From: a virus
Lineage: Duplodnaviria; Heunggongvirae; Uroviricota; Caudoviricetes
IMG/VR virus record: IMGVR_UViG_2609459861_000002
Location: 1-16,313 of that record
DNA length: 16,313 nucleotides
Reading direction: 5' to 3' (one strand)
The translations under genes were made by a program, and so were the position numbers. Every line of letters starts with the position of its first letter. Position 1 is the stretch's first letter. Below the pieces are notes generated by a model. It was not told the DNA's origin, did not search any database, and was given only the letters and a program-made list of their open reading frames with translations. Below, piece by piece: positions 1 through 16,313 of this stretch.

Positions 1-1254
1 ATGCTGGAACAAATGGGCATTGCCGCGAAGCAAGCCTCGTATAAATTAGCGCAACTCTCCAGCCGCGAAAAAAATCGCGTGCTGGAAAAAATCGCCGATG
101 AACTGGAAGCACAAAGCGAAATCATCCTCAACGCTAACGCCCAGGATGTTGCTGACGCGCGAGCCAATGGCCTTAGCGAAGCGATGCTTGACCGTCTGGC
201 ACTGACGCCCGCACGGCTGAAAGGCATTGCCGACGATGTACGTCAGGTGTGCAACCTCGCCGATCCGGTGGGGCAGGTAATCGATGGCGGCGTACTGGAC
301 AGCGGCCTGCGTCTTGAGCGTCGTCGCGTACCGCTGGGGGTTATTGGCGTGATTTATGAAGCGCGCCCGAACGTGACGGTTGATGTCGCTTCGCTGTGCC
401 TGAAAACCGGTAATGCGGTGATCCTGCGCGGTGGCAAAGAAACGTGTCGCACTAACGCTGCAACGGTGGCGGTGATTCAGGACGCCCTGAAATCCTGCGG
501 CTTACCGGCGGGTGCCGTGCAGGCGATTGATAATCCTGACCGTGCGCTGGTCAGTGAAATGCTGCGTATGGATAAATACATCGACATGCTGATCCCGCGT
601 GGTGGCGCTGGTTTGCATAAACTGTGCCGTGAACAGTCGACAATCCCGGTGATCACAGGTGGTATAGGCGTATGCCATATTTACGTTGATGAAAGTGTAG
701 AGATCGCTGAAGCATTAAAAGTGATCGTCAACGCGAAAACTCAGCGTCCGAGCACATGTAATACGGTTGAAACGTTGCTGGTGAATAAAAACATCGCCGA
801 TAGCTTCCTGCCCGCATTAAGCAAACAAATGGCGGAAAGCGGCGTGACATTACACGCAGATGCAGCTGCACTGGCGCAGTTGCAGGCAGGCCCTGCGAAG
901 GTGGTTGCTGTTAAAGCCGAAGAGTATGACGATGAGTTTCTGTCATTAGATTTGAACGTCAAAATCGTCAGCGATCTTGACGATGCCATCGCCCATATTC
1001 GTGAACACGGCACACAACACTCCGATGCGATCCTGACCCGCGATATGCGCAACGCCCAGCGTTTTGTTAACGAAGTGGATTCGTCCGCTGTTTACGTTAA
1101 CGCCTCTACGCGTTTTACCGACGGCGGCCAGTTTGGTCTGGGTGCGGAAGTGGCGGTAAGCACACAAAAACTCCACGCGCGTGGCCCAATGGGGCTGGAA
1201 GCACTGACCACTTACAAGTGGATCGGCATTGGTGATTACACCATTCGTGCGTAA
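1..1254 (+). CDS. proA: gamma-glutamyl phosphate reductase (glutamate-5-semialdehyde dehydrogenase)
   Basis: Full-length 417-aa ORF; I recognise the translation as enterobacterial ProA. Window begins at its start codon. Confidence 0.97.
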
Positions 1255-1368
1255 ATAAAACCGGGTGATGCAAAAGTAGCCATTTGATTCACAAGGCCAT
1301 TGACGCATCGCCCGGTTAGTTTTAACCTTGCCCACCGTGATTCACGTTCGTGAACATGTCCTTTCAGG

Positions 1369-1444
1369 GCCGATATAGCTCAGTTGGTAGAGCAGCGCAT
1401 TCGTAATGCGAAGGTCGGAGGTTCGACTCCTCTTATCGGCACCA
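1369..1444 (+). tRNA. thrW: tRNA-Thr, anticodon CGU
   Basis: Cloverleaf readable by eye: acceptor GCCGATA/TATCGGC, D-arm GCTC..GAGC, anticodon stem GCGCA/TGCGA with loop TTCGTAA (anticodon CGT), T-arm GGAGG-TTCGACT-CCTCT, 3' CCA encoded. Sits directly after proA as thrW does in E. coli. Confidence 0.93.
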
Positions 1445-1458
1445 TTTAAATCAATAAG

Positions 1459-2622
1459 TTACACATCATTAGTACCTTCCTTATTTTTTGACTGGGACAA
1501 ATTTGGGACCGATGGGTTCAGGATCGAGTCTATTTGCCGTGCGTGTTCGGTAAGGTGATTAGGTGCGAGGTGAGCATATCGACGAACCATTTCGATAGAC
1601 TCCCAGCCTCCCATTTCCTGTAACACTGACAACGGGACACCGGCTTGAACCAGCCAACTTGCCCAGGTGTGTCTCAAGTCATGAAATCTGAAATCATCAA
1701 TACCAGCTCGTCTCAGCGCCGCTTTCCAGGCTGTGTTTGCGTCATACCGCATCTTCCTGACTGTTGGCGCTTTCGTTCCGTCTGGTTTGGTACAGCTTTC
1801 CTTGTACACAAATACCCAACGGTGATGATTCCCGATTTGTTTTTTCAATACGCGACATGCAGTATCATTCAGCGCAACGCCAATTGCGCGGTTTGATTTA
1901 CTCTCTTCCGGGTTTATCCATGCCACCCGGCGCTGCATATCTATTTGTTGCCATTCAAGGTTGATGATGTTCGAGCGTCTTAAGCCTGTTGCCAGTGCAA
2001 ATTCAACAACAGACTTTAATGGCTCCGGACATTCATCAATCAGCCTTTGTGCTTCATGGGGCTCCAGCCAGCGGATCCGTTTATTCTTTGGTTGAGGCAC
2101 TTTAATAATTGGTGCCTTATCCAGCATTTTCCATTCACGCTCTGCGGCTCTTAGTAGGGCCTTTATAAATGAAAGATGCGTAGCCTTCGTTGCAACGGAC
2201 GCTGGTTTTGGCGTGTATTCTGGAACAGGTTTCCCTTTTTTTCTGCATGCTTCTGCCCTGAGTTTCCAGTTTTCCTCATGACGCCGGTTCGTCATTTTCT
2301 GCATTGCTGAATAAATTTTTGATTCAGTGATGTCTCTTAGTTGCATCCCTGCGAAATGTTGAAGCCAGAATCCGATCCGGCTTTTGTCATCGTCCAGTGA
2401 TTTCTTATGTGCTTTCTCTTCGAGCCACCTGACACACGCTTCCTCAAACGTCATATCAGGTATTTCACCAAGTTTGCTGACCCGCCATGCTTCAGCCTTT
2501 AGCTTGTCATGGAGCTCTGTCGCCTGCCTTTTGTCCTTTGTTCCAAGAGACTGTTTAAATCTTTTACCGTTCGGCAATGTGAAACTGGCGTACCATATTT
2601 CACTTCTGCGGAAGAGTGACAT
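1459..2622 (-). CDS. int: phage tyrosine integrase (lambdoid Int family)
   Basis: 387-aa ORF beginning [27 protein letters not shown], which I recognise as the IntD/IntF-type prophage integrase of E. coli; C-terminal HDLRHTWAS (HxxR) and RRYAHL (catalytic Tyr region). Stop codon lies 15 nt from the tRNA CCA end. Confidence 0.93.
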
Positions 2623-2849
2623 TTTCTTTCCTCTGTTATGCCATCACCCGCGCTCACCTTGATAGTATGCAGCGGAGACTGAAGCGCCGCAATGCAGGCT
2701 TGTCGCGTTGTGAGGTAAGGAGATTTTGGTTTAGTGGGGTCTTTGCGTGTTGCCTGTAGGCGGCCTGTTCGTATCCAGTTGGTGGCGGTTGGTCTGGATA
2801 TCTTAAGAAACTGACAGGCCTCATCGAGTGTGAGGCTGTATGATTCCAT
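2499..2849 (-). CDS. xis: excisionase / AlpA-type helix-turn-helix protein
   Basis: HTH-like segment [29 protein letters not shown] at 2849 is preceded by GAGG with 5-nt spacing; the longer track ORF starts at an upstream GTG. Lies immediately upstream of int, and its 3' end overlaps the int 5' end by about 120 nt, so one of the two ends is uncertain. Confidence 0.65.
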
Positions 2850-3099
2850 GGTTACCTCTGCTTTTTGAACGCATGTCACGTAACTTCTTAATGTGTTCTG
2901 CCGTTTCGATCTCTTCTGCTATCCGATCTGCATCAGCTTTATTCACAGGTTCAAAGTCATGATTAAAGCGGAACATGCTGGCGATACATGTTCTGCCTTT
3001 TCGGATGTAGTGAACTTTGTTGTGGGTAGAACGCAGGATTTTGCAGGGAGTGCCGTGGTGGTCGACGTACCAGGTGTTAGGAAAAATGATTCTGAACAT
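2821..3099 (-). CDS. hypothetical phage protein (92 aa)
   Basis: ORF with protein-like composition; ATG at 3099 preceded by GAGGT at 5-nt spacing; overlaps the xis start by 29 nt as in compact phage operons. Family not recognised. Confidence 0.5.
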   Translation of the reverse strand: MFRIIFPNTWYVDHHGTPCKILRSTHNKVHYIRKGRTCIASMFRFNHDFEPVNKADADRIAEEIETAEHIKKLRDMRSKSRGNHGIIQPHTR

Positions 3100-3146
3100 T
3101 TTTACACCTCAGTTGGACGATGTTGAAATTTGCTGCTTTGAGGCCA

Positions 3147-3365
3147 TCACAGTCCCCATTGTTTGTTCTTAAGTTCGATCTCCTCCTGGCAACTTGCACA
3201 AGTCCGACAACCCTGAACAGCCAGGCGTCTTCGCTCATCTATCGGATCGCCACACTCACAACAATGAGTTGCGGATACAGTCTGGTAGTTCAGACGACGC
3301 ATTTTTATTGCTGTATTGCGCTGTAATTCTTCGATTTCTGATGCTGAATCAATGATGTCTGCCAT
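3147..3365 (-). CDS. TraR/DksA-family C4 zinc-finger protein
   Basis: 72-aa ORF with CCECGDPIDERRRLAVQGCRTCASC, i.e. CxxC-(17)-CxxC, at the C-terminus; size and motif spacing match phage and plasmid TraR homologues. Confidence 0.8.
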   Translation of the reverse strand: MADIIDSASEIEELQRNTAIKMRRLNYQTVSATHCCECGDPIDERRRLAVQGCRTCASCQEEIELKNKQWGL

Positions 3366-3418
3366 CTTCCATTAATCCCTGAATTGTTGGTTAATACGCT
3401 TGAGGATGAATGCGAACA

Positions 3419-3443
3419 ATAAAAAAGGAGCCTGTAGCTCCCT
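3419..3443 (-). terminator. candidate intrinsic terminator downstream of the 3464-3679 ORF
   Basis: On the minus-strand RNA: stem GGAGC/GCUCC (extendable by a G-U and an A-U pair), loop UACAG, followed by UUUUUUAUUG. Confidence 0.4.
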
Positions 3444-3463
3444 GATGATTTTGCTTTTCATGT

Positions 3464-3679
3464 TCACCGTTCCTTAAAGACGCCGTTTAACATGCCGATC
3501 GCCAGGCTTAAATGAGTCGGTGTGAATCCCATCAGCGTTACCGTTTCGCGGTGCTTCTTTAGTACGCTACGGCAAATGTCATCGACGTTTTTATCCGGAA
3601 ACTGCTGTCTGGCTTTTTTGATTTCAGAATTAGCCTGACGGGCAATGCTGCGAAGGGCGTTTTCGTGCTGAGGTGTCAT
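3464..3679 (-). CDS. hypothetical phage protein (about 71 aa, start uncertain)
   Basis: C-terminal 71 residues from MTPQHENALRSIARQ are protein-like; the upstream in-frame extension to 3778 is Cys/His-rich and less convincing. No strong SD at any candidate start. Confidence 0.4.
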   Translation of the reverse strand: MTPQHENALRSIARQANSEIKKARQQFPDKNVDDICRSVLKKHRETVTLMGFTPTHLSLAIGMLNGVFKER

Positions 3680-3755
3680 TGAACAAGTCCCATGTCGGCA
3701 AGCATAAGCACACAGAATATGAAGCCCGCTGCCAGAAAAATGCATTCCGTGGTTG

Positions 3756-4133
3756 TCATGCAGCCTCCCGACGGGCAAGAATCCTTGAGCCGAACGCCAT
3801 CAACTCTCCACGATCAACGGTCGTAAAGTGGCAGTGTGTACGGGGGTATGGGTGCCAGATAATGAGCATCGAACCTTTATTATTTCCACTGACGGGTTTC
3901 TCAGTGAGTGGGTTAATAAATGCCAGTCGTCCTGCCGTGATGAATCTGACCTCACTGGCGGTTTGTATCGCTTCATGAAACCATCCGACAGATGTGTCAG
4001 CAGGCAATAACATTACACATCCCACACTACTGAATTTGTTTTCAGTGGCTGCCTTTTTCACAAAAGGGGAAATATTGCTGTATGGTGGATTCAACCAGAC
4101 ATAACCAGAGGCATATCTGGCTGAAAGAGGGGG
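3756..4133 (-). pseudogene. phage N6-adenine DNA methyltransferase (Dam family), 5'-truncated
   Basis: Translation contains the NPPY catalytic motif followed by MLLPADTSVGWFH..EVRFI.GRL.F.NP, as in phage Dam-type methyltransferases. Only 13 codons precede NPPY before an in-frame stop at 4134-4136, and there is no ATG; the track start is a TTG at the NPPY codon. The N-terminal part expected in this family is absent. Confidence 0.6.
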
Positions 4134-4143
4134 TTATTAAGGC

Positions 4144-4506
4144 GTGAATACCTACAGTATCACATTACCCTGGCCTCCGAGCAATAATCGCTATTACCGC
4201 CATAATCGCGGGCGCACGCACGTCAGTGCAGAGGGGCAGGCATACCGCGATAACGTCGCCCGAATCATTAAAAGCGCAATGCTGGATATCGGCCTGGCTA
4301 TGCCTGTGAAAATCCGCATTGAGTGCCACATGCCGGATCGCCGTCGCCGTGACCTGGATAATCTGCAAAAAGCCGCTTTTGACGCACTCACTAAAGCAGG
4401 TTTCTGGCTGGATGATGCTCAGGTCGTTGATTACCGCGTTGTGAAGATGCCTGTTACCAAAGGTGGGAGGCTGGAACTGACCATCACCGAAATTGGGAAT
4501 GAATGA
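4144..4506 (+). CDS. rusA: crossover junction endodeoxyribonuclease RusA (Holliday junction resolvase)
   Basis: 120-aa [27 protein letters not shown]...; I recognise it as nearly identical to E. coli prophage RusA. GTG start with GAGGGGG upstream. Confidence 0.93.
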
Positions 4507-4643
4507 TGTTTGAGTTTTATATGGCAGAACTTCTTCGCCACCGCTGGGGGCATCTGCGCTTATATCGTTTCCCCGGTTCTGTTTTGACCGATTACCGAAT
4601 ACTGAAGAATTACGCCAAAACCCTGACAGGAGCAGGAGTATGA
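4503..4643 (+). CDS. ylcG: YlcG-like small phage protein (46 aa)
   Basis: Hand translation from the ATG overlapping the rusA stop (ATGA) gives [46 protein letters not shown], matching the small gene that follows rusA in DLP12-type prophages. Below the ORF-track size cutoff. Confidence 0.65.
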
Positions 4644-4728
4644 AGTCAGAGATAACAATCAACTAATACTGTTTTGTTGATTTTTGCTTGTAATTGGCGT
4701 TCTGGTCTGATTTTTGTGGAGTAAGTTG

Positions 4729-5112
4729 ATGCGTGATATTCAGATGGTTCTTGAGCGTTGGGGAGCGTGGGCGGCTAATAATCATGAAGATGTGACCTGG
4801 TCGTCCATTGCCGCCGGTTTTAAGGGATTAATTACTTCAAAAGTAAAATCTCGCCCGCAATGTTGTGACGATGACGCGATGATTATTTGCGGGTGCATGG
4901 CCCGTCTGAAAAAGAACAACAGCGATTTGCACGATTTATTAGTAGATTATTATGTAGTCGGTATGACATTCATGTCACTGGCAGGTAAGCATTGCTGCTC
5001 TGATGGTTATATCGGGAAAAGGTTACAGAAGGCTGAGGGCATAATTGAAGGGATGTTAATGGCATTAGATATCCGGTTAGAGATGGATATCGTTGTTAAT
5101 AACTCTAATTAA
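4729..5112 (+). CDS. late-gene antiterminator Q (Q82/QuuD type)
   Basis: 127 aa from the ATG at 4729 ([22 protein letters not shown]...), with Cys clusters [12 protein letters not shown] and HCC typical of the Q zinc-binding fold; sits between the rusA/ylcG nin remnant and the lysis genes. Confidence 0.85.
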
Positions 5113-5145
5113 TATGCCAATTGTTTACTAAAAATTATTAAAAAT

Positions 5146-5163
5146 GGGGCGTTGAGACGCCCC
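5146..5163 (-). terminator. intrinsic terminator downstream of the porin gene
   Basis: Stem GGGGCG/CGCCCC with 6-nt loop; on the minus strand it is followed by AUUUUUAAUAAUUUUU. The plus-strand side is A-rich, so it is not a plus-strand terminator. Confidence 0.5.
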
Positions 5164-5301
5164 CAAAAATAAAGGGTAATATATAACAGAAGGTTTATAT
5201 AGTTAGAAGCAAGGTTGTGCTTCTAAAGGAAGGGGTTGGGGGGAGCCCTTTATATGGGGGGGAGGCACCGCCCCCCGCAACATATCTTTTTCGTAATCAG
5301 A

Positions 5302-6399
5302 TTAGAACTGGTAAACCAGACCTACAGCAACGATGTCATCAGTGCTTACACCGAGTGCTTTAGTGAAGTCATTTTTGTCAAGCAGGTTGATTTTGTAATC
5401 AACGAAAGTAGACATATTTTTGTTGAAGTAATAGGTTGCACCTACATCAACATATTTGACTAAGTCCTGATCGCCCCATACTCCAAGATCCTTACCTTTA
5501 GATTGCAGGTAAGCAACGGACGGACGCAGACCGAAATCGAACTGATATTGTGCAACAGCTTCGAAGTTTTGGGCTTTATTAGCAACGAAGTGATCAGCAA
5601 ATACAGTCATATTCTGGGTTTCAGAATAGGTAGTGGCCAGGTAAATGTTGTTAGCGTCATATTTCAGACCTGCGGCCCAAACTTCTGCATTTTTACCGGA
5701 AGCAAATACTTCAGGAAGAACTTTCCCTGCATTAACTTGAGTGTCGGTACGATCAGATTTCGCATAAGTTGCACCGATACCGAATCCTTCGTATTCATAG
5801 GTAGCAGAGAAACCGAAGCCATCACCGTTACCTTCAGTGTAGTTATCGAAATCGCTACGATCGTTTTTGCCTTGGTACTGAGCAGCAAAGTTCAGACCAT
5901 CAACCAGACCAAAGAAGTCGTTGTTACGATAGGTTGCAACACCAGTTGCACGTTGAGTCATGAACACGTCGGTTTGAGTCCAAGTGTCACCACCGAATTC
6001 TGGCAGGACGTCAGTCCACGCACCGATGTCGTATGCTACACCGTAGTTACGGCCGTAATCGATGGAGCCGTAGTCACCGAATTTCAGGCCAGCGAAGGCA
6101 AGACGGGTTTTATCTTTGGAGGAACCTTGAGATTCAGCGCGGTTGCCTTTGAATTCATATTCCCACTGACCGAAACCAGTCAGTTGATCGTTGATTTGGG
6201 TTTCACCTTTGAAGCCAAGACGGGCATAAGTAGTATCACCATCATCTGCATCATTAGAGGAGAAGTAGTGCTTAGCATTAACTTTCCCGTACAGATCCAG
6301 CTTGTTACTGTCTTTATTATAAATTTCAGCTGCCTGAGCAGACATCGCCATCAGTACTGATGCAGCTACAGCAGAAATTGCCACTGTTAATTTTTTCAT
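5302..6399 (-). CDS. nmpC: outer-membrane general porin, prophage-encoded (NmpC/Lc/OmpC family)
   Basis: 365-aa ORF with signal peptide [30 protein letters not shown], porin-like Gly/Tyr/Asp-rich beta-barrel composition and C-terminal YQF. I recognise the N-terminal mature sequence as the NmpC/Lc-type phage porin. Intact, with no IS disruption. Confidence 0.93.
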
Positions 6400-6940
6400 C
6401 GTGAGCCCTTTTTTTTGAACTATTATTAAAAAATGATGTCACTGCGCGATAAATATTCATCTAATCAATGTGATTATTTCAAGATGTAAGTTTTGGTTTC
6501 TCGTTTGATTTGTGAAGTAGATCTCTATTTTTATCTGAACTTTTTTCTATCGAATCCTATTCATAGCTCTTGGCTGAATAAAAATAAATCTATTAGCCAA
6601 TTTATATTAACGGCTGTTATTTATAAGTGCTCTATAATTTGAAGATTCAATTTAAATCGGCTAAAAATAACACTGGAAATTATTTGTTAGTTATTTGTTG
6701 AGGTTTTCTTATGTATTTGTGGTGGTGTTTTGAACACTCGGTAGCATTCTCATAAATATCATTCAGTGGTTTACGTACGTAAAAAATTGGTTATGCTGTT
6801 AAGAGTGGTTACTTCGTCACACAGCTTAAACCCGCCGTCGAGCTGGTTTTTCCATTTTTTGAGTCTCGATATTAGCTGATAACTCAATACCTGAGTTATT
6901 CACTGACTCCGAGTCTGTTACGTTTCTGCTTTTTTGCGAT
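6400..6940. promoter_or_regulatory. AT-rich upstream region of the porin gene; may also hold plus-strand late-operon signals
   Basis: About 540 bp of strongly AT-rich non-coding DNA with A/T tracts, of the kind found upstream of enterobacterial porin genes. No specific sites assigned. Confidence 0.3.
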
Positions 6941-6988
6941 ACGTTGTATTCCCTCAATTTACACCCGCTTTGTCTGCGAGGTGGGGTT

Positions 6989-7204
6989 ATGAAATCCATG
7001 GATAAGTTAACAACGGGTGTCGCCTATGGCACCTCAGCAGGTAGTGCCGGTTACTGGTTTTTACAGCTGCTCGATAAAGTCACGCCCTCACAGTGGGCGG
7101 CAATAGGTGTGCTGGGTAGTCTGGTATTTGGCTTGCTGACGTACCTGACAAACCTTTATTTCAAGATTAAAGAAGATAAGCGCAAGGCTGCGAGAGGTGA
7201 ATAA
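6989..7204 (+). CDS. class II holin (phage 21 S-type pinholin) with dual-start motif
   Basis: 71 aa, [26 protein letters not shown]...: two predicted TMDs, Met1-Lys2-Ser3-Met4 dual start, charged C-terminus; GAGGTGGGG SD 2-10 nt upstream. The longer track ORF starts at an upstream TTG. Confidence 0.9.
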
Positions 7205-7701
7205 TGCCTCCATCATTACGAAAAGCAGTTGCTGCTGCTATTGGTGGCGGAGCAATTGCTATAGCATCAGTGTTAATCACTGGCCCAAGTGGTAACGATG
7301 GTCTGGAAGGTGTCAGCTACATACCATACAAAGATATTGTTGGTGTATGGACCGTATGTCACGGGCATACAGGAAAAGACATCATGCTCGGTAAAACGTA
7401 TACCAAAGCAGAATGCAAAGCACTCTTGAATAAAGACCTTGCCACTGTCGCCAGACAAATTAACCCATACATCGAAGTCGATATACCGGAAACAACGCGC
7501 GGCGCTCTTTACTCATTCGTTTACAACGTGGGTGCTGGCAATTTCAGAACATCGACGCTTCTTCGCAAAATAAACCAGGGCGATATCAAAGGCGCATGTG
7601 ATCAGTTACGTCGCTGGACATATGCTGGCGGTAAGCAATGGAAAGGTCTCATGACTCGTCGTGAGATTGAGCGTGAAATCTGTTTGTGGGGTCAGCAATG
7701 A
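7204..7701 (+). CDS. SAR endolysin (T4-lysozyme-fold muramidase, phage 21 R-type)
   Basis: 165 aa; N-terminal Gly/Ala-rich weakly hydrophobic SAR segment [20 protein letters not shown] followed by the lysozyme motif GLEG..Y.D..G..T; start overlaps the holin stop (TAATG). Confidence 0.93.
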
Positions 7702-8159
7702 ACAGAGTAACCGCGATTATCTCCGCTCTGGTTATCTGCATCATCGTCGGCCTGTCATGGGCTGTTAATCATTACCGTGATAACGCCATTACCTACAAAG
7801 CCCAGCGCGACAAAAATGCCAGAGAACTGAAGCTGGCGAACGCGGCAATTACTGACATGCAGATGCGTCAGCGTGATGTTGCTGCGCTCGATGCAAAATA
7901 CACGAAGGAGTTAGCTGATGCGAAAGCTGAAAATGATGCTCTGCGTGATGATGTTGCCGCTGGTCGTCGTCGGTTGCACATCAAAGCAGTCTGTCAGTCA
8001 GTGCGTGAAGCCACCACCGCCTCCGGCGTGGATAATGCAGCCTCCCCCCGACTGGCAGACACCGCTGAACGGGATTATTTCACCCTCAGAGAGAGGCTGA
8101 TCACTATGCAAAAACAACTGGAAGGAACCCAGAAGTATATTAATGAGCAGTGCAGATAG
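7698..8159 (+). CDS. Rz i-spanin
   Basis: ATG at 7698 overlaps the endolysin stop (ATGA); N-terminal [21 protein letters not shown] then a charged coiled-coil-like periplasmic domain; closely resembles lambda Rz. Confidence 0.9.
7918..8100 (+). CDS. Rz1 o-spanin lipoprotein (embedded in Rz, +1 frame)
   Basis: 60-aa ORF wholly inside Rz; lipobox LVVVGC, proline-rich mature region [13 protein letters not shown]. Confidence 0.85.
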
Positions 8160-8190
8160 AGCTGCCCATATCGATGGGCAACTCATGCAA

Positions 8191-8484
8191 TTATTGTGAG
8201 CAATACACACGCGCTTCCAGCGGAGTATAAATGCCTAAAGTAATAAAACCGAGCAATCCATTTACGAATGTTTGCTGGGTTTCTGTTTTAACAACATTTT
8301 CTGCGCCGCCACAAATTTTGGCTGCATCAACAGTTTTCTCCTGTCCAATTCCCGAAACGAAGAAATGATGGGTGATGGTTTCCTTTGGTGTTACTGCTGT
8401 CGGTTTGTTTCCAACAGTAAACGTCTGTTGAGCACATCCTGTAATAAGCATTGCCAGAGCGGCAGAAAACAACATTTTTTTCAT
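8191..8484 (-). CDS. bor: Bor lipoprotein (serum-resistance-associated moron)
   Basis: 97 aa from MKKMLFSAALAMLITGC (lipobox ITGC); I recognise it as lambda Bor-like. Opposite orientation to the lysis genes, as in lambda. Confidence 0.9.
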   Translation of the reverse strand: MKKMLFSAALAMLITGCAQQTFTVGNKPTAVTPKETITHHFFVSGIGQEKTVDAAKICGGAENVVKTETQQTFVNGLLGFITLGIYTPLEARVYCSQ

Positions 8485-9341
8485 CTTATTATCCTGTATT
8501 GTTAAAAACAGCAGAATCCTATGTGACAACAATTAAACGATAGTTAAATGGATTGATGAAAATTAAAACTATATAGGTGTACGGTCAGACTATTGGAGGT
8601 AGTCTGGATTTGAATGTCAGTGTGTTGTCGGCATTATGGCAATGCAATTTGGATAAAGCGGGGATTAAAAAGATAGAGGCGAGCCGGTCAGGTAGAAATG
8701 AATCAGGCTCAAAGTGAAGCGGAAAAGGTCTTTGGCACAAACTGATGCTGCCATAATTACAGCCTGATGACTTGTGGAATGAAACATGTTGAACCTCCTT
8801 AATTGATGTTATTCGAGTGAGGAAGGCATTCTGTCCTCCTATACTGTCCAGTAAATCAAACAGGAAGCTTGTCTCACGTGTGAGACAAGCCTCTCCATTA
8901 GCGAGTTGTATTGATCACAACTCTTCAAAGAATTCATTACTGGGTAGATGAAAATAGTTTCACGATGAATGGAGGAGGCTATGTTGGTGGCTTCTTCATT
9001 GGAGTACATATGCCCCCACGAACCCCAAAAACCTGCCGTGTTCGCGGCTACCGCAATACCACCACAGATCCGTCAGGCTATTGCAAAAGCCACAAAAGCG
9101 AAGGCTGGAAGCAATACAAGCCGGGCCAGTCCTGTCATCAGCGCGGTTATGGTTCGCGGGGTTGTCCCTCATGCTCGCCAGTCCTGTGCGGGGGGGGGAA
9201 GAAACAGGACACTCACACAGATTTTTGTGGGTCGATGCTATTCCTTTCTGGATTATCCCGATGCCATTCATGCAAGGGCTGTATCAGACGTTCGTCATGG
9301 CTGTCAGGCTGACGGGTCCTCCCGGTGGGGGGGCCTGCCAC

Positions 9342-9528
9342 GGGGCGGGAGCGTCGCGGAAAAAGGCTAGTTTTTGCATTTTTATCGGCCACCATCATCT
9401 TTACATCTTATTGATTATTAATGATTATTTGTTTTTTGTATGTCGAATTGCGTGTTTTTTGTTCGACATCGAACGCGTTTTCTTAAAGTTGTTCGCACGA
9501 TGCATGTTTAAAGCTCTCCGGAGGAAAT
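9342..9528. other. candidate cos region (cosN-like core followed by A/T-rich cosB-like segment)
   Basis: CGGGGCGGGAGCGTCGCGG at 9341-9359 matches the lambda cosN core as I remember it (CGGGGCGGCGACCTCGCGG) in both flanks, differing in the central 5 nt; followed by an A/T-rich stretch with repeated TTCGA/TCGAA motifs, directly upstream of the small terminase gene. Confidence 0.4.
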
Positions 9529-10020
9529 ATGGATCATGAGTTGAAAAACCTGGTGCTGAATATTAATCAACTGGCGGCTTTATCTGGTCTGCACCGCCAG
9601 ACTGTCGTGGCAAGACTGAAAAACATTCGTCCCGCTGGTGGACATGACAAACTCAAGCTATACCGGTTGACCGATATTCTGACTGAATTTATGGGGTTAC
9701 CACCGCCGGTTGCTGAGGGCGAAATGGATCCACATGAACGCAAAGCCTGGTATCAGTCTGAACGTGAGCGTCTTAAGTTCGAACAGGAAACGGCACAACT
9801 CATTCCGGCCAGTGATGTCAGACGGGAGTTTGCCATCTGGGCAAAAGCGGTCGTGCAGGTGCTGGAGACATTACCGGATATTCTGGAACGTGACTGCGGC
9901 CTGCAGCCTGCTGCTGTGAGCCGTGTTCAGTCCATTATTGATGATCTGCGCGATCAGATAGCCCTGCGGGTGACCGAAGCAGGTGCGGATGATGAGGAGG
10001 AATTACAGCAGGAGGAGTAA
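9529..10020 (+). CDS. terminase small subunit (Nu1 family)
   Basis: 163-aa ORF with N-terminal HTH-like segment LNINQLAALSGLHRQTVVARLKNI and acidic C-terminus; stop overlaps the start of the large-terminase ORF (TAATG), the standard Nu1-A arrangement. Confidence 0.8.
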   Translation: MDHELKNLVLNINQLAALSGLHRQTVVARLKNIRPAGGHDKLKLYRLTDILTEFMGLPPPVAEGEMDPHERKAWYQSERERLKFEQETAQLIPASDVRREFAIWAKAVVQVLETLPDILERDCGLQPAAVSRVQSIIDDLRDQIALRVTEAGADDEEELQQEE

Positions 10021-11312
10021 TGCTGAATCAGGAAACCGCAAAGGCAGCACGAACCGATTCAGGTTATATCCTTCGCGCACCGAGACGAATGCGGGTTGCT
10101 GATGCCGTTGCTCAGTATATGCGAGTGCCCATGGGGGCCGGGAACTCAGTCCCGTGGGATCCGCTGGTGGCACCGTATGTTCTTGAGCCGATGAACTGCC
10201 TGGCCTCGCGTGAATACGACGCAGTGATATTTGTTGGTCCGGCACGAACCGGCAAGACTATCGGCCTGATTGACGGCTGGGTGATTTACAACGTGATTTG
10301 CGATCCTGCGGATATGCTGATCATTCAGATGACGGAGGAAAAAGCCCGCGAACACTCCAAAAAACGACTTGCCAGAACGTTTCGCGTCAGCCCGGAAGTG
10401 GTCAGTCGCCTGAGTCCGAACAAAAATGACAACAACGTTTATGACAGAACATTCCTTGCTGGCAACTACCTGAAAATCGGCTGGCCGTCAGTCAATATCA
10501 TGTCCTCATCAGATTATAAATGCGTGGCGCTGACGGATTATGACCGTTTTCCGGAAGATATTGATGGCGAGGGGGATGCCTTCTCTCTTGCCTCAAAACG
10601 TACCACCACATTTATGTCCAGTGGTATGACGCTGGTGGAGAGTTCCCCCGGCAGGGATGTGAAGGATGTGAAATGGCGACGGACTTCACCGCATGAGGCT
10701 CCACCAACCACGGGGATACTGTCGCTCTATAACCGTGGCGATCGCCGTCGCTGGTACTGGCCCTGTCCACACTGTGGTGAGTATTTTCAGCCCTGCGGCG
10801 ATGTGGTTGCTGGTTTCCGTGATATTGCCGATCCCGTGCTGGCAAGTGAGGCGGCTTATATTCAGTGTCCTTCCTGTTCAGGACGGATTATGCCTGAACA
10901 AAAACGTGAGCTGAACGGACGTGGGGTCTGGTTGCGGGATGGTGAATCCATCAATGCGGATGGCAGTCGTTATGGTGATCCCCGACGCTCACGTATTGCG
11001 TCATTCTGGATTCCACCCATTATCTTTAACGGAATAGCGTATAGCGATCCGGGAAGTGGTAATAACCCGGGAGGTACAAGATACACGGGTTATGGTTTTG
11101 AAGTTCGCAAAAACGGTGTATTAATCGCATCCAGAGAAACTAAAGGGGCCATTCCCGGTAGCTACAGTGCGGTTATTGATATGCCGAGTGGCAGGGGAAG
11201 CGTCACTCTGGAGTTTAAGGTTTTCCATAAAGGCAATCAGTGGGCAGGTAATATCACCGACTGTACGGTGATTGTGACCAAAAAAGCTGCTTCCGGCATC
11301 AGTATTCGTTGA
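10020..11312 (+). pseudogene. terminase large subunit (gpA family), N-terminal ATPase region only, fused in frame to about 100 unrelated codons
   Basis: Residues 1 to about 330 carry gpA-like landmarks (P-loop VGPARTGKT, CPHCGEYFQ zinc motif, GVWLRDG). Lambda gpA is about 640 aa; here the ORF ends at 430 aa and its last 100 residues do not resemble terminase. A hairpin-plus-T6 terminator and lom follow, which is the position of the J 3' end in lambda. Confidence 0.7.
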
Positions 11313-11333
11313 AGTTGTTATAACCCATATAAG

Positions 11334-11357
11334 GGCACCAGAAATGGTGCCTTTTTT
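11334..11357 (+). terminator. intrinsic terminator
   Basis: GGCACCA-GAAA-TGGTGCC stem-loop followed by TTTTTT. Confidence 0.7.
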
Positions 11358-11381
11358 ATTGCAGAAAAGCGAGAGGTAATT

Positions 11382-11981
11382 ATGCGTAAACTTTATGCCG
11401 CCATTTTGTCCGCAGCCATTTGTCTGGCCGTATCCGGTGCGCCTGCATGGGCATCTGAACATCAGTCCACGCTGAGCGCGGGGTATCTTCATGCCCGGAC
11501 CAACGTTCCCGGCAGCGATGATCTGAACGGGATTAACGTGAAATACCGTTATGAGTTTACGGACACACTGGGGCTGGTGACGTCATTCAGCTATGCAGGA
11601 GACAAGAATCGCCAGCTGACCCATTACAGCGATACCCGCTGGCATGAAGATTCCGTTCGTAACCGCTGGTTCAGCGTAATGGCGGGGCCGTCTGTGCGCG
11701 TGAATGAATGGTTCAGCGCGTATGCGATGGCGGGTATGGCTTACAGCCGTGTTTCGACTTTTTCCGGGGATTATCTCCGCGTAACTGACAACAAGGGGAA
11801 AACGCATGATGTGCTGACCGGAAGTGATGACGGTCGCCACAGCAACACGTCTCTGGCGTGGGGGGCTGGCGTGCAGTTTAACCCGACCGAATCCGTGGCC
11901 ATTGATATTGCTTATGAAGGCTCCGGCAGTGGCGACTGGCGCACTGACGGTTTCATCGTGGGGGTCGGTTATAAATTCTGA
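11382..11981 (+). CDS. lom: Lom outer-membrane protein (Ail/Lom/PagC family)
   Basis: 199 aa with signal peptide ending AWA/SEH and C-terminal IDIAYEGSGSGDWRTDGFIVGVGYKF, which I recall as identical to the lambda Lom C-terminus. Confidence 0.92.
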   Translation: MRKLYAAILSAAICLAVSGAPAWASEHQSTLSAGYLHARTNVPGSDDLNGINVKYRYEFTDTLGLVTSFSYAGDKNRQLTHYSDTRWHEDSVRNRWFSVMAGPSVRVNEWFSAYAMAGMAYSRVSTFSGDYLRVTDNKGKTHDVLTGSDDGRHSNTSLAWGAGVQFNPTESVAIDIAYEGSGSGDWRTDGFIVGVGYKF

Positions 11982-12008
11982 TTAGCCAGGTAACACAGTG
12001 TTATGACA

Positions 12009-12034
12009 GCCCGCCGGTTCAGGCGGGCTTTTTT
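12009..12034 (+). terminator. intrinsic terminator downstream of lom
   Basis: GCCCGCC-GGTTCA-GGCGGGC stem-loop followed by TTTTTT. Confidence 0.75.
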
Positions 12035-12045
12035 GTGGGGGGAAT

Positions 12046-15000
12046 ATGGCAGTAAAGATTTCAGGTGTACTGAAAGACGGCGCAGGTAAACCGGTACAGA
12101 ACTGCACAATCCAGCTGAAAGCAAAACGTAACAGCACCACGGTGGTGGCGAACACGGTGGCCTCAGAAAATCCGGATGAAGCCGGGCGTTACAGCATGGA
12201 CGTTGAGTACGGTCAGTACAGCGTTATTCTGTTGGTGGAAGGCTTCCCGCCATCGCATGCCGGGACCATCACCGTGTATGAAGACTCACAACCGGGTACG
12301 CTGAATGATTTTCTCGGTGCCATGACGGAGGATGATGTCCATCCGGAGGCACTGCGCCGCTTTGAACTGATGGTGGAAGAGGTGGCGCGTAACGCGTCCG
12401 CAGTGGCGCAGAACACAGCAGCCGCGAAGAAGTCAGCCAGCGATGCCGGCACATCAGCCCGTGAGGCGGCAACCCGTGCAACTGATGCTGCAGGCTCAGC
12501 ACGTGCAGCCAGCACGTCAGCCGGACAGGCCGCTTCGTCGGCTCAGTCAGCGTCTTCCAGCGCAGGAACGGCATCAACAAAGGCCACTGAAGCATCAAAA
12601 AGTGCTGCCGCTGCAGAGTCTTCAAAAAGCGCGGCAGCCACCAGTGCCGGTGCAGCGAAAACGTCAGAAACGAATGCCGCAGCATCACAAAAATCTGCGG
12701 CCACTTCTGCATCCACCGCGACCACGAAAGCGTCAGAAGCTGCCACCTCAGCCCGGGATGCGTCGGCTTCAAAAGTGGCGGCAAAATCATCAGAAACGAG
12801 CGCAGCCTCGAGCGCCGGCAGTGCAGCTTCCTCGGCAACGGCGGCAGGAAATTCCGCGAAGGCCGCAAAAACGTCTGAGATGAATGCGGATAACAGCGCA
12901 CAGGCGGCAGCAGACTCACAAACTGCATCGGCAAATTCCGCGACAGCAGCCAAAAAATCAGAAACCAACGCGAAAAATAGTGAGTCAGCAGCAAAGGTCA
13001 GCGAAACCAACGCTAAAGCGTCAGAGAACAAGGCGAAAGAATATCTCGACAAGGTCGGGGGACTCGTCAGCCCGATGACGCAATACGATTGGCCCGTTGT
13101 TACTGGTAATGAGTCTTTTTACATAAAGATCGCGAAACTTTCCGATCCCGGAAGCAACAATTGCCATGTAACGCTAATGGTTACTAACGGCGGTGACTAC
13201 AGCTCCCCTTACGGAAACATTGACTTTATCGAGATCTCGGCGCGCGGTCTGCCTTCTTCGCTTACTGCTGATAATGTATCTCGTTACCTGAGTATACGCC
13301 GTTTAGGGCCAACCGGGCTAATCAATAGCATGCAAATGCGTTACGGCCTGGTTAAAGATGATGGCTTTATTGAGGTTTGGGCCTTCCAGCGTGCATTTAT
13401 CAACGGCGCAAAGGTTGCGGTACTGGCGCAGACGGCACGCACGGAATTATACATTCCAGACGGATTTGTTAAGCAAACCGCCGCGCCTTCTGGATATGTT
13501 GAAAGCCCCGTTGTAAGGATTTACGACCAGTTAAACAAGCCGACTAAAGCAGATTTGGGCCTTTCTAATGCTATGCTTACAGGCGCTTTTGGTCTTGGCG
13601 GTAGCGGTCTTGTTTTGGATGGTAAAATGACCGATAAGGAACTACTACAAGAGCTAAGGGCGAAAGGTGGGTGTTTCTGGAGGTCAGGAAAACCAACAGG
13701 TAGCGAATCAACAATTTTCAGCCACGGTTCTGGTATATTCTCGCGGTGCGGCGATACGTGGTCAGCTATTAATATCGATTACGAAAGCGGTAGAGTAAAG
13801 ATTTACTCTAGTAACGATAATAGACTCAACAATGGTACTTTTAACATAAATGAGCTATACGGAACCAAATACAAGCCGTCGAAATCGGATGTTGGACTTG
13901 GTAACGTAACTAACGATGCGCAGGTGAAAAAATCCGGCGACATTATGTCAGGTGATCTGTCGATCACTAAAGCAACACCTTCACTATACCTGCGTTCAAA
14001 AAGTGGAACCGCCCATGTATGGTTCCAAAATGAGGATCAGTCGGAACGCGGCGTTATTTTTGCGCCTACAAATACTGATACGCTTGGCGAAGTTCACATC
14101 AGGGCTAAAAACGCAAAAGGTCAATCAAGTGGTGATTTTATTGTTCGTCACGACGGGATGGTTGAAGCCCGTGATCTCACATTAGCGGGTAAAACTAAAG
14201 GCGCAAAAGCAGAATTTGCAAACACAAGCACTAGCTCCGATGATACTACGGTAAGCATAAAAGGATCTCAGCATACTCCTCTGGTTTTAACGCGCAACAA
14301 CACAATTAAAAATTTATCCATTGGGTTTAAGGTTGATGACGTTGACCAAAAATATCTCGGCATATACGGTGACGGTGATTTGTATTTTGGTGGTTATTCT
14401 GACCACACAAAAAACAGCAAAGTAATTACACAAGCAATACTCGATAGCGGGGTAACGGTAGGCGGCAAAACAACATTTTCTGACCTTGCCACATTTAACG
14501 CAGGTATGTCTGGGCCTATCGAGCCGGAAGCCATTGAAGGCATGACTATCGATCTTAATGACCTTATCATTAAGTTCACGGATAAAGGTTCAGTTAAATA
14601 CTATCACTGCAAAACTGCCGGAGGCGGTTCGAATATTACCAATAAGCCTGACGGCGTAGGCGGCAACTTTTTGCTTCGTGTAGAGTCAATTCGTAAGGTT
14701 AGTGATTCAGATTATATAAACATGCAAACGCTGATTAGCGGCGACAAAGGACGCGTGCATGTTCGTTTTGTTACTAATGGTAATTGGACAGCATGGAGCG
14801 AGCATGTTGTTTCAGGATGGAATCAGGATGTGACCGTCAGGTCGTTAACCTCGACGACTCCATCAAAATTAGGCGGCGGGCGTGTTGATGTGCTGGGGAG
14901 TACGTCAGATTACAGTAGTATGAATTGTGCTGTGCGCGGTGTTGATAGCACTGGAACCAATTCGGCGTGGTCAGTAGGTACATCGAAAAACACGGGAAAA

Positions 15001-15804
15001 ATGTTGTGCCTTAAAAACCACAGAAGCAGCGCTCAAGTGCTGTTAAATGGCGATGATGGCGCGGTGCAACTACTAAGCGGTACTGTCAACGGTGCTACAG
15101 CACAGGCGCTAACCATCAACAAAGATGAGGTTAACTCAACTGCTGATTTAGTAATTAGAAAACAGTCAGGGACTGGCAATCGTTTTGTTTTAAAGAACGC
15201 AGGTAATGCAGAACTACCGTTTAACATCAGTGTATGGGGTTCAAGTGATCGACAAAACGTTTTTGAGGTTGGAACGTCTGCTGCGTATCTGTTTTATGCG
15301 CAAAGAACGCCAGCAGGCCAGTTGTTTGATGTAAATGGCGCTATTAATTGCACAACGCTGAATCAGTCATCAGACCGCGACCTTAAAGACGATATTCTCG
15401 TTATCAGCGACGCGACGAAAGCAATCCGCAAAATGAACGGGTACACCTACACGCTCAAGGAAAACGGCCTTCCTTATGCTGGCGTTATTGCACAGGAAGT
15501 AATGGAGGCGCTACCGGAAGCCGTAGGATCGTTTACTCGTTACGGTGAAGAATTGCAGGGTCCGACCATTGATGGCAACGAGCTACGCGAAGAAACGCGT
15601 TACCTCAATGTTGATTATGCGGCGGTGACTGGTTTACTTGTCCAGGTCGCCCGTGAAACAGATGATCGCGTTACCGCGCTGGAAGAGGAAAACACAACGC
15701 TACGTCAAAATCTGGCAACAGCAGACACCCGGATCAGCACTCTGGAAAATCAGGTAAGCGAACTGGTTGCACTTGTCCGGCAGTTAACAGGAAGCGAACA
15801 TTGA
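12046..15804 (+). CDS. stf: mosaic side tail fibre: lambda Stf-like N-terminus, divergent central domain, C-terminal intramolecular chaperone (peptidase S74-like) domain
   Basis: 1252-aa ORF. N-terminus MAVKISGVLKDGAGKPVQNCTIQLKA... is near-identical to lambda Stf as I recall it, followed by an Ala/Ser/Thr/Lys-rich repetitive shaft. Central region, from about residue 337, is unrelated. C-terminal 143 aa begin SS/DRDLK (Ser and Lys at i+5) and end in a heptad-like coiled coil, as in self-cleaving chaperone domains of endosialidase and T5 pb1-type fibres. Confidence 0.9.
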   Translation: MAVKISGVLKDGAGKPVQNCTIQLKAKRNSTTVVANTVASENPDEAGRYSMDVEYGQYSVILLVEGFPPSHAGTITVYEDSQPGTLNDFLGAMTEDDVHPEALRRFELMVEEVARNASAVAQNTAAAKKSASDAGTSAREAATRATDAAGSARAASTSAGQAASSAQSASSSAGTASTKATEASKSAAAAESSKSAAATSAGAAKTSETNAAASQKSAATSASTATTKASEAATSARDASASKVAAKSSETSAASSAGSAASSATAAGNSAKAAKTSEMNADNSAQAAADSQTASANSATAAKKSETNAKNSESAAKVSETNAKASENKAKEYLDKVGGLVSPMTQYDWPVVTGNESFYIKIAKLSDPGSNNCHVTLMVTNGGDYSSPYGNIDFIEISARGLPSSLTADNVSRYLSIRRLGPTGLINSMQMRYGLVKDDGFIEVWAFQRAFINGAKVAVLAQTARTELYIPDGFVKQTAAPSGYVESPVVRIYDQLNKPTKADLGLSNAMLTGAFGLGGSGLVLDGKMTDKELLQELRAKGGCFWRSGKPTGSESTIFSHGSGIFSRCGDTWSAINIDYESGRVKIYSSNDNRLNNGTFNINELYGTKYKPSKSDVGLGNVTNDAQVKKSGDIMSGDLSITKATPSLYLRSKSGTAHVWFQNEDQSERGVIFAPTNTDTLGEVHIRAKNAKGQSSGDFIVRHDGMVEARDLTLAGKTKGAKAEFANTSTSSDDTTVSIKGSQHTPLVLTRNNTIKNLSIGFKVDDVDQKYLGIYGDGDLYFGGYSDHTKNSKVITQAILDSGVTVGGKTTFSDLATFNAGMSGPIEPEAIEGMTIDLNDLIIKFTDKGSVKYYHCKTAGGGSNITNKPDGVGGNFLLRVESIRKVSDSDYINMQTLISGDKGRVHVRFVTNGNWTAWSEHVVSGWNQDVTVRSLTSTTPSKLGGGRVDVLGSTSDYSSMNCAVRGVDSTGTNSAWSVGTSKNTGKMLCLKNHRSSAQVLLNGDDGAVQLLSGTVNGATAQALTINKDEVNSTADLVIRKQSGTGNRFVLKNAGNAELPFNISVWGSSDRQNVFEVGTSAAYLFYAQRTPAGQLFDVNGAINCTTLNQSSDRDLKDDILVISDATKAIRKMNGYTYTLKENGLPYAGVIAQEVMEALPEAVGSFTRYGEELQGPTIDGNELREETRYLNVDYAAVTGLLVQVARETDDRVTALEEENTTLRQNLATADTRISTLENQVSELVALVRQLTGSEH
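12400..13050 (+). repeat. degenerate tandem coding repeats (Ala/Ser/Thr/Lys-rich shaft of the tail fibre)
   Basis: Recurring motifs KTSETNA, KSSETSA, KTSEMNA, KKSETNA, KVSETNA in the translation; GC-rich, and it generates long spurious ORFs in other frames and on the opposite strand. Confidence 0.6.
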
Positions 15805-15984
15805 TATCCTTCAAGCTCTGAAGGAGGCTGTTCCCGGTACGTTCAGACTGTTGTTGAGCTGGAGATCGCAACGGAGGAAGAAACCTCATTGCTGGAAGCC
15901 TGGAAAAAATATCGGGTGTTGCTGAACCGTGTTAATACAACAACTGCACCGGATATTGAGTGGCCAGAAGAACCTATAGGGTAA
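15805..15984 (+). pseudogene. tail fibre assembly protein (Tfa), 3' remnant without start codon
   Basis: The 60 codons immediately after the fibre TGA, in the same frame, end ...[36 protein letters not shown], which reads as a Tfa C-terminus; there is no ATG/GTG with an SD in this frame. Confidence 0.5.
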
Positions 15985-16054
15985 ATTCGTAATGATTACC
16001 TAAATACGTTATTCTTTTGTTCAAAAAGTGATTTTGCTATAGGTAGGGAGTATG

Positions 16055-16313
16055 GGTGATGCTGCCAACTTACTGATTTAGTGTATGATGGTGTTTTTGA
16101 GGTGCTCCAGTGGCTTCTGTTTCTATCAGCTGTCCCTCCTGTTCAGCTACTGACGGGGTGGTGCGTAACGGCAAAAGCACCGCCGGACATCAGCGCTATC
16201 TCTGCTCTCACTGCCGTAAAACATGGCAACTGCAGTTCACTTACACCGCTTCTCAACCCGGTACGCACCAGAAAATCATTGATATGGCCATGAATGGCGT
16301 TGGATGCCGGGCA
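16055..16313 (+). mobile_element. IS1 insertion sequence, left end (partial, runs off the window)
   Basis: From GGTGATGCTGCCAACTTACTGAT (the IS1 terminal inverted repeat) onward the sequence matches IS1 as I remember it, through the insA 5' region. Confidence 0.92.
16110..16313 (+). CDS. insA: IS1 InsA (partial, 5' portion)
   Basis: GTG start at 16110; hand translation gives [68 protein letters not shown], the InsA N-terminus. Missed by the ORF track because it has no stop inside the window. Confidence 0.88.

Follow-up and report, generated by a model that had tools for sequence, protein, structure and literature searches.

A complete side tail fibre gene of mosaic lambda/T5 ancestry in a defective lambdoid prophage at proA-thrW

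The gene stf described here encodes a side tail fibre and lies in a defective lambdoid prophage at proA-thrW, contained in the IMG/VR record IMGVR_UViG_2609459861_000002 (Caudoviricetes; positions 1 to 16,313, i.e. the whole stretch that was analysed, called the window in the following). Its closest described counterparts are the side fibres of phages Ayreon and lambda (Ur-lambda) and the fibre protein pb1 of T5. In lambda, twelve copies of the N-terminal domain of the side fibre, gpStfN, make up a collar where gpV and gpM meet (PMC12617516). This anchor and the beginning of the coiled coil are common to lambda Stf and the present protein, and the J-lom-stf gene order is also the same; lambda Stf, however, has a gp37-like, OmpC-binding C-terminus and a separate Tfa, neither of which is found here, where an S74 chaperone is built in and only a stump of tfa is left. 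T5 pb1 (Ltf, 1396 residues) consists of an anchoring domain (residues 1-40), a coiled coil (41-218), a rigid fibre domain (219-1263) and then the chaperone (PMC12750041); the fibre domain comprises six subdomains, the last of which (965-1263) binds sugar (PMC12750041, the CASP16 target paper). The coiled coil, most of the rod and the S74 chaperone with its Ser...Lys motif are shared with pb1, but the T5 anchoring domain, which clamps under the p132 collar, is replaced by the lambda anchor, the bullet-shaped oligomannose-binding subdomain D6 by a tip of about 155 residues, and the two chaperones are only about 35% identical over 77 residues. The temperate siphovirus Ayreon was obtained on a derivative of K-12; it forms plaques on K-12 and is inducible (PMC5764929). 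The neighbours of its fibre gene (J, lom, a terminator and a tfa stump) are the same as in the window, although Ayreon is a complete viable temperate phage at prfC and the element at proA-thrW is a deletion derivative.

Lambda Stf chimeras with a similar design have been engineered (lambda-P2, -K1F, -K5 and -KL106; Brodel et al. 2024) and are functional in trans (PMC11338833). They combine the lambda Stf N-terminal part with a foreign tip, in the K1F case with an S74 chaperone, and are joined at lambda Stf residue 393 or 528, whereas the natural junction described below lies within residues 234-284 and the donor is a T5-type fibre. Fibres of T5-like, rV5-like and small siphophages (Kenya-K15, BB1, welsh, mEp010) share the tip and chaperone with the stf product (40-48% identity, 71% for mEp010), but their shafts and anchors are unrelated; in the case of Kenya-K15, the similarity is confined to the Ala/Ser repeats and the tip/chaperone. 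Finally, several cryptic lambdoid prophages of K-12 contain fibre genes, namely stfR/tfaR in Rac, stfQ/tfaQ in Qin and tfaD in DLP12; there, likewise, head and tail genes have been lost and the right-end fibre genes kept, the difference being that here the fibre is full-length and has its own chaperone.

With a probability of about 0.8, stf is a complete, functional-type lambdoid Stf of mosaic ancestry, which has been stranded in a deletion-crippled prophage. It is best named a lambdoid Stf with a pb1-type shaft, being a full member of neither parental family. A preliminary description of the window, made from the sequence alone, had proposed a conserved lambda-type attachment end joined to a foreign receptor-recognition part with its own self-cleaving chaperone, and this core of the proposal survived every test run. 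Several of its details did not, as described below together with the features listed in table 1. The gene is already known, in that it is deposited and annotated in Ayreon and hundreds of genomes, and tail-fibre mosaicism is an established phenomenon, as are S74 chaperones and the survival of fibre genes in cryptic lambdoid prophages; the literature search found no paper explicitly describing this lambda/T5 fibre chimera or its junction.

Modules of the fibre and their junctions

The coordinates originally given for the fibre gene are exact: the reading frame opens with an ATG, is free of internal stops and encodes 1252 residues up to the stop codon at 15802-15804. Every strong match of the protein in PHROG is a tail fibre family, among them PHROG 24369 (E 4e-288) and phrog_6578 (tail fibre, 1210 profile positions), which spans the protein almost end to end (E = 0). 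Full-length homology to one fibre family, which had been expected to speak against a mosaic, is thus formally found with PHROG 6578; the mosaic ancestry of the protein stands all the same. In Pfam, PF08400 and PF13884 were found along with coiled-coil-type matches at the extreme C-terminus, and the NCBIfam scan returned only an SMC coiled-coil match, which was discarded as spurious.

Table 1. Features of the window, in order of position (aa, residues of the stf product).
Feature	Coordinates	Strand	Basis or remark
proA	1-1254
tRNA-Thr	1369-1444
integrase	1459-2622	-
early-gene remnants, then rusA	between integrase and Q
Q	4714-5112
porin gene	5302-6399	-	Porin_1, E 5e-157
holin, lysozyme, Rz	6944-8159
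nohD-like small terminase gene	9529-10020
gpA ATPase::J C-terminus in-frame fusion, 430 aa	10020-11312	+	marks the head-tail deletion, junction 11010/11011
lom	11382-11981	+	PF06316, E 4e-121; upstream neighbour of stf as in lambda
intrinsic terminator between lom and stf	12008-12039	+	8-bp stem with 7 GC pairs, then T-run
stf, complete side tail fibre gene	12046-15804	+	single open reading frame, 1252 codons plus stop
lambda-type N-terminal anchor (virion attachment), aa 1-134	12046-12447	+	PF08400, gpStfN match
Ala/Ser/Thr-rich repeats, predicted trimeric coiled coil, aa 135-343	12448-13074	+	aligns to T5 pb1 coiled coil 41-218
lambda/T5 crossover zone in shared repeats, aa 234-284	12745-12897	+	three-way identity count
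T5 pb1-type fibre rod, beta-rich subdomains, aa 344-952	13075-14901	+	pb1 alignment, AF2, BFVD
distal tip, presumed receptor-binding end, aa 953-1108	14902-15369	+	not the T5 tip; match to Kenya-K15 lateral fibre
S74 intramolecular chaperone, aa 1109-1252 (144 residues)	15370-15801	+	PF13884
tfa remnant, last quarter approximately, no start codon	15842-15984	+	DNA identity, Caudo_TAP
IS1 left end with insA (from 16104)	16055-16313	+	InsA zinc ribbon, HTH_Tnp_IS1; truncates the region past the tfa remnant

The lambda-like character of the N-terminus, as initially reported, is supported by several lines of comparison. The prophage tail fibre N-terminal domain PF08400 was recognized at residues 1-134 with E 4e-71 (237.6 bits, against a cut-off of 26.6), 119 of these 134 residues being identical to lambda, and residues 1-94 match the solved lambda gpStfN chains 9e7m/9mgh of the Ur-lambda tail structure (E 3e-51). 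In a BLASTP comparison with lambda orf-401, the N-terminal part of Stf, 240 of 284 residues are identical (85%) in a gap-free alignment of residues 1-284, and nothing convincing follows after residue 284. Residues 337-1108 are without similarity to the rest of lambda Stf, in agreement with the claim that the middle and distal parts are unrelated to it.

The extent of the lambda-like stretch had to be revised. It had been taken to reach residue 340 or so, but ends at about residue 284, residues 285-336 belonging to the same class of Ala/Ser repeats while being much closer to T5 pb1 than to lambda. This emerges from an ungapped three-way count of identities among the stf product, lambda and T5 pb1: within residues 201-233, 31 of 33 positions are identical to lambda and 9 of 33 to pb1; within residues 234-284, the counts are 41/51 and 36/51, respectively; within residues 285-336, they are 15/52 and 42/52. 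At the DNA level, identity to lambda (86%) extends over 11854-12887 and identity to T5 (74%) is found from 12778 on. Since lambda Stf 234-284 and T5 pb1 108-158 are 73% identical to each other, the crossover falls within sequence common to both parental fibre types. The module boundary proposed at nucleotide 13055 (residue 337) is, therefore, misplaced, the crossover zone sitting about 55-100 codons upstream.

What had been called a repetitive shaft would correspond, by mapping onto the pb1 architecture, to the coiled coil, ending at about residue 344. The Ala/Ser repeats are degenerate at the DNA level, as Tandem Repeats Finder returned a single trivial match for the gene (13 bp, two copies). 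Two antisense open reading frames lie within the repeats (12269-12994, minus strand, 241 residues; 12543-13052, minus strand, 169 residues), where lambda carries the annotated 'orf206b'; most likely, the GCN-rich codons give rise to them and they are not genes.

The preliminary description had also pointed to a sequence becoming AT-richer from about nucleotide 13055. In windowed analysis the drop is real, the GC fraction being 0.53-0.63 over 12050-13100, 0.40-0.49 over 13100-15350 and about 0.51 in the last 450 nucleotides. As evidence of foreign origin, however, it does not hold, the GC content of third codon positions (GC3) being nearly unchanged: residues 135-284 have a second-position GC content of 0.81 and a GC3 of 0.46, and residues 337-952 have a GC3 of 0.43. 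Only in the anchor is GC3 high (0.62), and it declines near codon 150, still within the lambda-like part. Thus, the GC step mainly reflects the second position of Ala, Ser and Thr codons, and what composition reveals is where the coiled coil ends rather than where recombination took place. Following this codon-position analysis, GC content was rejected both as a junction marker and as a sign of foreign origin, and the junction is placed, on sequence comparison, by homology instead.

A T5 pb1-like fibre, one of the folds suggested at the outset for the middle part, proved to be the right one. Residues 177-952 (776 residues) align to pb1 34-819, starting inside the repeats, with 432 of 799 positions identical (54%), so that residues 345-952 would represent the counterpart of most of the pb1 rod. 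The AF2 model of residues 337-960, built on 29 sequences, contains five confident beta-rich blocks with pLDDT 70-90 (approximately residues 356-496, 526-606, 646-711, 756-801 and 826-921); its pTM of 0.30 is low, as expected for beads of a trimeric rod predicted as a monomer. Fold matches of this model in the PDB are weak and to other phage fibres (NF5 receptor-binding protein, T4 gp34), and the PDB copy that was searched contains no solved pb1 rod. Among the predicted viral structures of BFVD, 135 matches were obtained with E <= 1e-3, the best being Klebsiella phage KP27 gp37 (E 9e-42), and the top 50 of the 135 are tail fibre, tail, tailspike or nameless entries except for one 'capsid and scaffold' entry at rank 39.

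Recurring beta-strand-like units had been noted in this region. A BLAST self-comparison of the protein for internal repeats gave no match, and a banded Smith-Waterman self-alignment yielded a best off-diagonal score of 68 against 43.7 +/- 3.6 in 12 shuffles, a modest signal that comes from within the tip (period of about 60 residues, 953-1100) and from residues 540-600 against 650-700, approximately. Some repetition is, therefore, weakly supported, but the three motifs that had been singled out were not shown to form one repeat family.

Beyond residue 952, the relationship with T5 is limited to a short stretch around the cleavage motif (35%, 77 residues): the tip is without similarity to pb1 820-1263, and the T5 distal-domain entries 4UW7, 4UW8 and 5AQ5 were not retrieved in the PDB sequence search with the stf product. 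Its relatives are found elsewhere. For tip and chaperone (residues 975-1233), identity reaches 46% in a lateral fibre encoded by the T5-like Salmonella phage Kenya-K15; a fibre of phage mEp010 has 71% identity over residues 1061-1251, and 393 phage records contain the tip/chaperone module at some level. As T5 has the rod without the tip and Kenya-K15 the tip without the rod, at least four modules are to be distinguished, and T5-type fibres are themselves mosaics. The three-module mosaic originally proposed is, accordingly, a mosaic, but its modules, as judged by sequence, are at least the lambda anchor with coiled coil, the T5-pb1-type rod, the non-T5 tip and the S74 chaperone, rod and tip having separate relatives. 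The tip varies among homologues, as no column before residue 1064 is invariant in an alignment of 25 of them (50-94% identity), and the conservation profile of a close set of 29 non-redundant full-coverage alleles shows no sharp hypervariable tip.

The chaperone-type domain at the C-terminus was correctly recognized in the preliminary description, except for its length, given there as 143. Peptidase_S74 (PF13884) matches residues 1109-1160 with E 2e-12 (47.4 bits, threshold 22), the sequence S1109-D-R-D-L-K1114 aligns with S1264-D-A-R-L-K1269 of T5, and Ser1109 and Lys1114 are invariant across the 25 homologues. In T5, Ser1264 is needed for autoproteolysis, Lys1269 has the activating role and the cut falls between Thr1263 and Ser1264; the processed fibre alone competes with the phage for the receptor (PMC4690869). 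By this correspondence, the chaperone is predicted to cut itself off before Ser1109. The AF2 monomer of residues 940-1252 (mean pLDDT only 59.8) consists of short helices, a beta-hairpin (residues 1160-1189) and a C-terminal helix of 58 residues, and a Foldseek search of the PDB with it gave weak matches throughout (T4 gp34, E 2e-3, TM 0.24; 3gw6, E 0.6), from which no fold can be named.

Relatives of the gene and their annotation

The stf product and its counterpart in Escherichia phage Ayreon (MF807953, ATP61598.1), a side tail fibre of the same length, are identical at 1235 of 1252 positions (99%), and the DNA between the 3' end of J and the tfa stump (11010-15965) is 99.1% identical. Of 5426 complete Escherichia coli genomes, 406 contain 80% or more of the gene; among public read-set assemblies, a single one yielded the exact protein. 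As the finished mosaic is present in Ayreon and is common in E. coli, the swap was not made in this prophage. Furthermore, Ayreon is viable with the same stf and the same tfa stump, so that a viable phage uses this fibre without Tfa.

Of the 40 differences from Ayreon, 26 cluster in the first 654 nucleotides. The rate of synonymous differences (dS) is 0.10 in codons 1-284, 0.007 in codons 285-952 and 0 in codons 953-1252, the anchor being about 15-fold above the T5-type part, which indicates separate histories of the anchor and the distal cassette. Within the T5-type part, 1-3 synonymous and 6-7 non-synonymous differences from close relatives are too few to judge the ratio of non-synonymous to synonymous rates (dN/dS).

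In the RefSeq/PGAP annotation of the strains 98219, EJN001 and W409, the orthologue is divided into an N-terminal 'pseudogene, missing C-terminus' and a 909-residue 'pyocin knob domain-containing S74 family peptidase', which starts at the equivalent of Met344 (the split loci being L001 13001-16759, L008 12501-16262 and L010 16198-19977). As no interruption of the frame is seen in any of the three, the split looks like a systematic annotation artefact.

The defective prophage around the gene

That the prophage is unable to build virions, as originally stated, is confirmed by the fused gene upstream of lom and by comparison with the complete prophage of strain 98219 at the same proA-thrW site. 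The fusion combines the Pfam domains GpA_ATPase (residues 41-304) and Ig_GpJ_C (350-429), its J part being the last 80 to 100 residues or so. With respect to 98219, 16,629 bp are missing, from about codon 331 of the terminase gene to near the end of J, and this 16.6-kb deletion removed every gene for head and tail; the early region, too, is largely absent from the window. The exact deletion junction is contiguous in none of the 5426 complete E. coli genomes, the one full-coverage match spanning 1,119 bp in two pieces and, therefore, being a different arrangement; thus, the deletion is rare and probably recent.

A different in-frame terminase::J fusion is found at proA-thrW in W409 (L010 13124-15466, 780 residues), with the same arrangement in TA8571; it retains the gpA ATPase, half of the nuclease domain, a tail-tip domain and the full J C-terminal domain. 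Both in the window and in W409/TA8571, the fusion is followed by lom and then by an intact stf. In ZH177, a third A'::'J arrangement lies in Qin, and stf is truncated. Identity to W409 is 96-99% in the left arm of the window (1-7814, proA up to the lysis genes) and only about 88% in the right arm (lom, stf), which indicates that the two halves of the thrW elements have different histories. The left arm is DLP12-like (int, Q, porin and lysis genes of the essD/rrrD type), and the porin gene lies on the opposite strand between Q and the lysis cassette, like nmpC in DLP12; next to the porin gene, W409 and TA8571 carry a copy of IS3 or IS1.

The order J remnant, lom, stf at the end of the late operon is that of lambda and Ayreon. 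A strong terminator (12008-12029 plus the T-run) is located 16 nucleotides upstream of the stf start, and Ayreon has a terminator annotated at the equivalent place; a promoter scan at stf gave no more promoter-like sites than expected by chance from shuffles. By analogy with lambda, transcription of stf would need Q-modified read-through from the late promoter.

At the right junction, positions 15842-15965 are 88% identical at the DNA level to the 3' end of lambda tfa, and the translated stump corresponds to the last 45 codons, approximately (positions 86-130 of the 131 of the Caudo_TAP profile); in relatives it is annotated as a truncated tfa pseudogene. Compared with a lambda-like ancestor, a cassette of about 2.9 kb with its own chaperone has taken the place of everything from about codon 285 of stf to about codon 146 of tfa. 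Since the chaperone is built into Stf, Tfa is not needed, and only the tfa stump is left. An IS1 element starts about 70 bp past the stump and runs off the window, the position of its terminal repeat having been read from the sequence; Ayreon and EJN001 have other small open reading frames there. In the intact relative 98219 (L008 16983-21437), an AVAST type 2 (Avs2) anti-phage gene directly follows the tfa stump, in a moron position; it is absent from the window, which has IS1 instead.

Probable relic, possible donor or reservoir

As a lambdoid Stf of mosaic ancestry, the product of stf would be expected to behave as follows. Three chains would trimerize from the C-terminus, the S74 chaperone templating the folding of the tip; the Ser1109/Lys1114 dyad would then cut before Ser1109, releasing the chaperone, and the mature fibre of 1108 residues would be held by its lambda-type N-terminal domain at the collar site, at the junction between tail tube and tip. 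From there the fibre would project on the Ala/Ser coiled coil and continue as a rigid rod of the T5-pb1 type, while its small distal tip would bind a surface receptor reversibly, speeding adsorption before J engages its own receptor. Trimerization, cleavage, collar attachment and receptor binding are the properties that we infer for this protein. The gene itself probably originated by homologous recombination inside the coiled-coil repeats common to lambda Stf and T5 pb1, before it reached this strain, which makes no virion for the fibre and in which a terminator separates the gene from the rest of a truncated late operon, at whose far end it lies. Here, stf is most likely a recent relic: the deletion is rare, early regulation has been lost and a terminator precedes the gene. 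Other lambdoid phages might nevertheless still acquire it by recombination or be supplied with its fibre in trans.

Some observations weigh against this reading. The literature search found neither this protein nor the Ayreon fibre to have been studied experimentally, the AF2 monomer of tip and chaperone is of low confidence (pLDDT 59.8), and the tip differs from the oligomannose-binding domain of T5. The case for a relic is built on how rare the deletion is and on the lack of expression signals, and in at least one other lineage, W409, whose terminase::J deletion is independent and whose arrangement TA8571 shares, stf is intact, which is weakly compatible with retention by selection. Finally, dN/dS against close relatives is low overall (0.18-0.23), although this mostly reflects history before the deletion.

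The alternatives differ in whether the protein is used at all. A use in trans would require that the late operon be switched on by a co-resident or superinfecting lambdoid phage, or by the prophage's own Q, and that the fibre join the tails of the helper and alter or broaden its adsorption range. The late operon is indeed contiguous (Q, lysis genes, nohD, A::J, lom, stf), anchor and lambda collar domain share about 90% of their residues, plasmid-supplied chimeric lambda Stf proteins are incorporated and functional (PMC11338833), and the reading frame is intact both here and in the independently deleted W409, an arrangement also seen in TA8571. However, the strong terminator just upstream, with a promoter of its own not above chance, and the loss of the early regulatory region, which makes Q expression doubtful, make this improbable; moreover, the intact frame is equally explained by a recent deletion, and ZH177, with a similar deletion, has a truncated stf. 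Still less probable is the stronger version, namely that thrW elements without head and tail genes keep lom and a full-length, chaperone-autonomous stf for use, as a host-range module acting in trans and switched on by the Q of co-resident phages; if true, the intact genes of W409/TA8571 would represent convergent retention and not chance. A role as a recombination reservoir, from which incoming lambdoid phages would take the rod/tip/chaperone cassette, flanked by J, lom, anchor and coiled coil on the left and by the tfa stump on the right, while the protein is never used in this strain, is the least unlikely of the alternatives, though still tentative. Temperate phages are known to acquire DNA from defective prophages, the module-specific divergence shows that such exchanges occur in this gene family, and both junctions lie in sequence common to lambda-type phages; yet it would be a consequence at the level of the population and not a function maintained in the strain, and by sequence it is inseparable from a relic.

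Two further alternatives concern the protein itself and are very unlikely. A pectate-lyase-like beta-helix, i.e. a depolymerase or tailspike, had been suggested for the middle part, and two depolymerase chains in the PDB do match, but weakly (E about 2e-3) and only over residues 278-365, the end of the coiled coil. No enzyme family was found in Pfam or NCBIfam, and the fold matches in the PDB and BFVD, which are essentially tail fibres, include no pectate-lyase and no enzyme of the beta-helix type; AF2 predicts small beta-rich subdomains and no long beta-helix, and the homologous region of T5 pb1 is a rigid rod of subdomains (PMC12750041). The locus might, on the other hand, comprise two genes, or a pseudogene and a gene, i.e. 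an N-terminal fragment and a 909-residue protein from Met344, as in the PGAP annotation of 98219, EJN001 and W409 and in many database entries of 909 residues. Against such a division, equally remote, stand the continuous frame in the window and in these three strains, the single gene annotated in Ayreon and TA8571, and the consideration that a fibre starting at Met344 would be without anchor and coiled coil.

The understanding of tail-fibre mosaicism and of cryptic prophages is unchanged by this gene, which adds one more example and no new kind. The public RefSeq annotation is wrong in splitting it into a pseudogene and a 909-residue protein. Its value, although modest, is that of a clean natural example of a siphophage fibre rebuilt from parts, in which the lambda anchor and the T5 rod have been joined exactly within the Ala/Ser repeats common to both parents, and in which the built-in S74 chaperone made the neighbouring tfa dispensable, leaving a datable scar. 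The natural junction, within lambda Stf residues 234-284, could guide the construction of chimeric fibres for lambda-based delivery particles.

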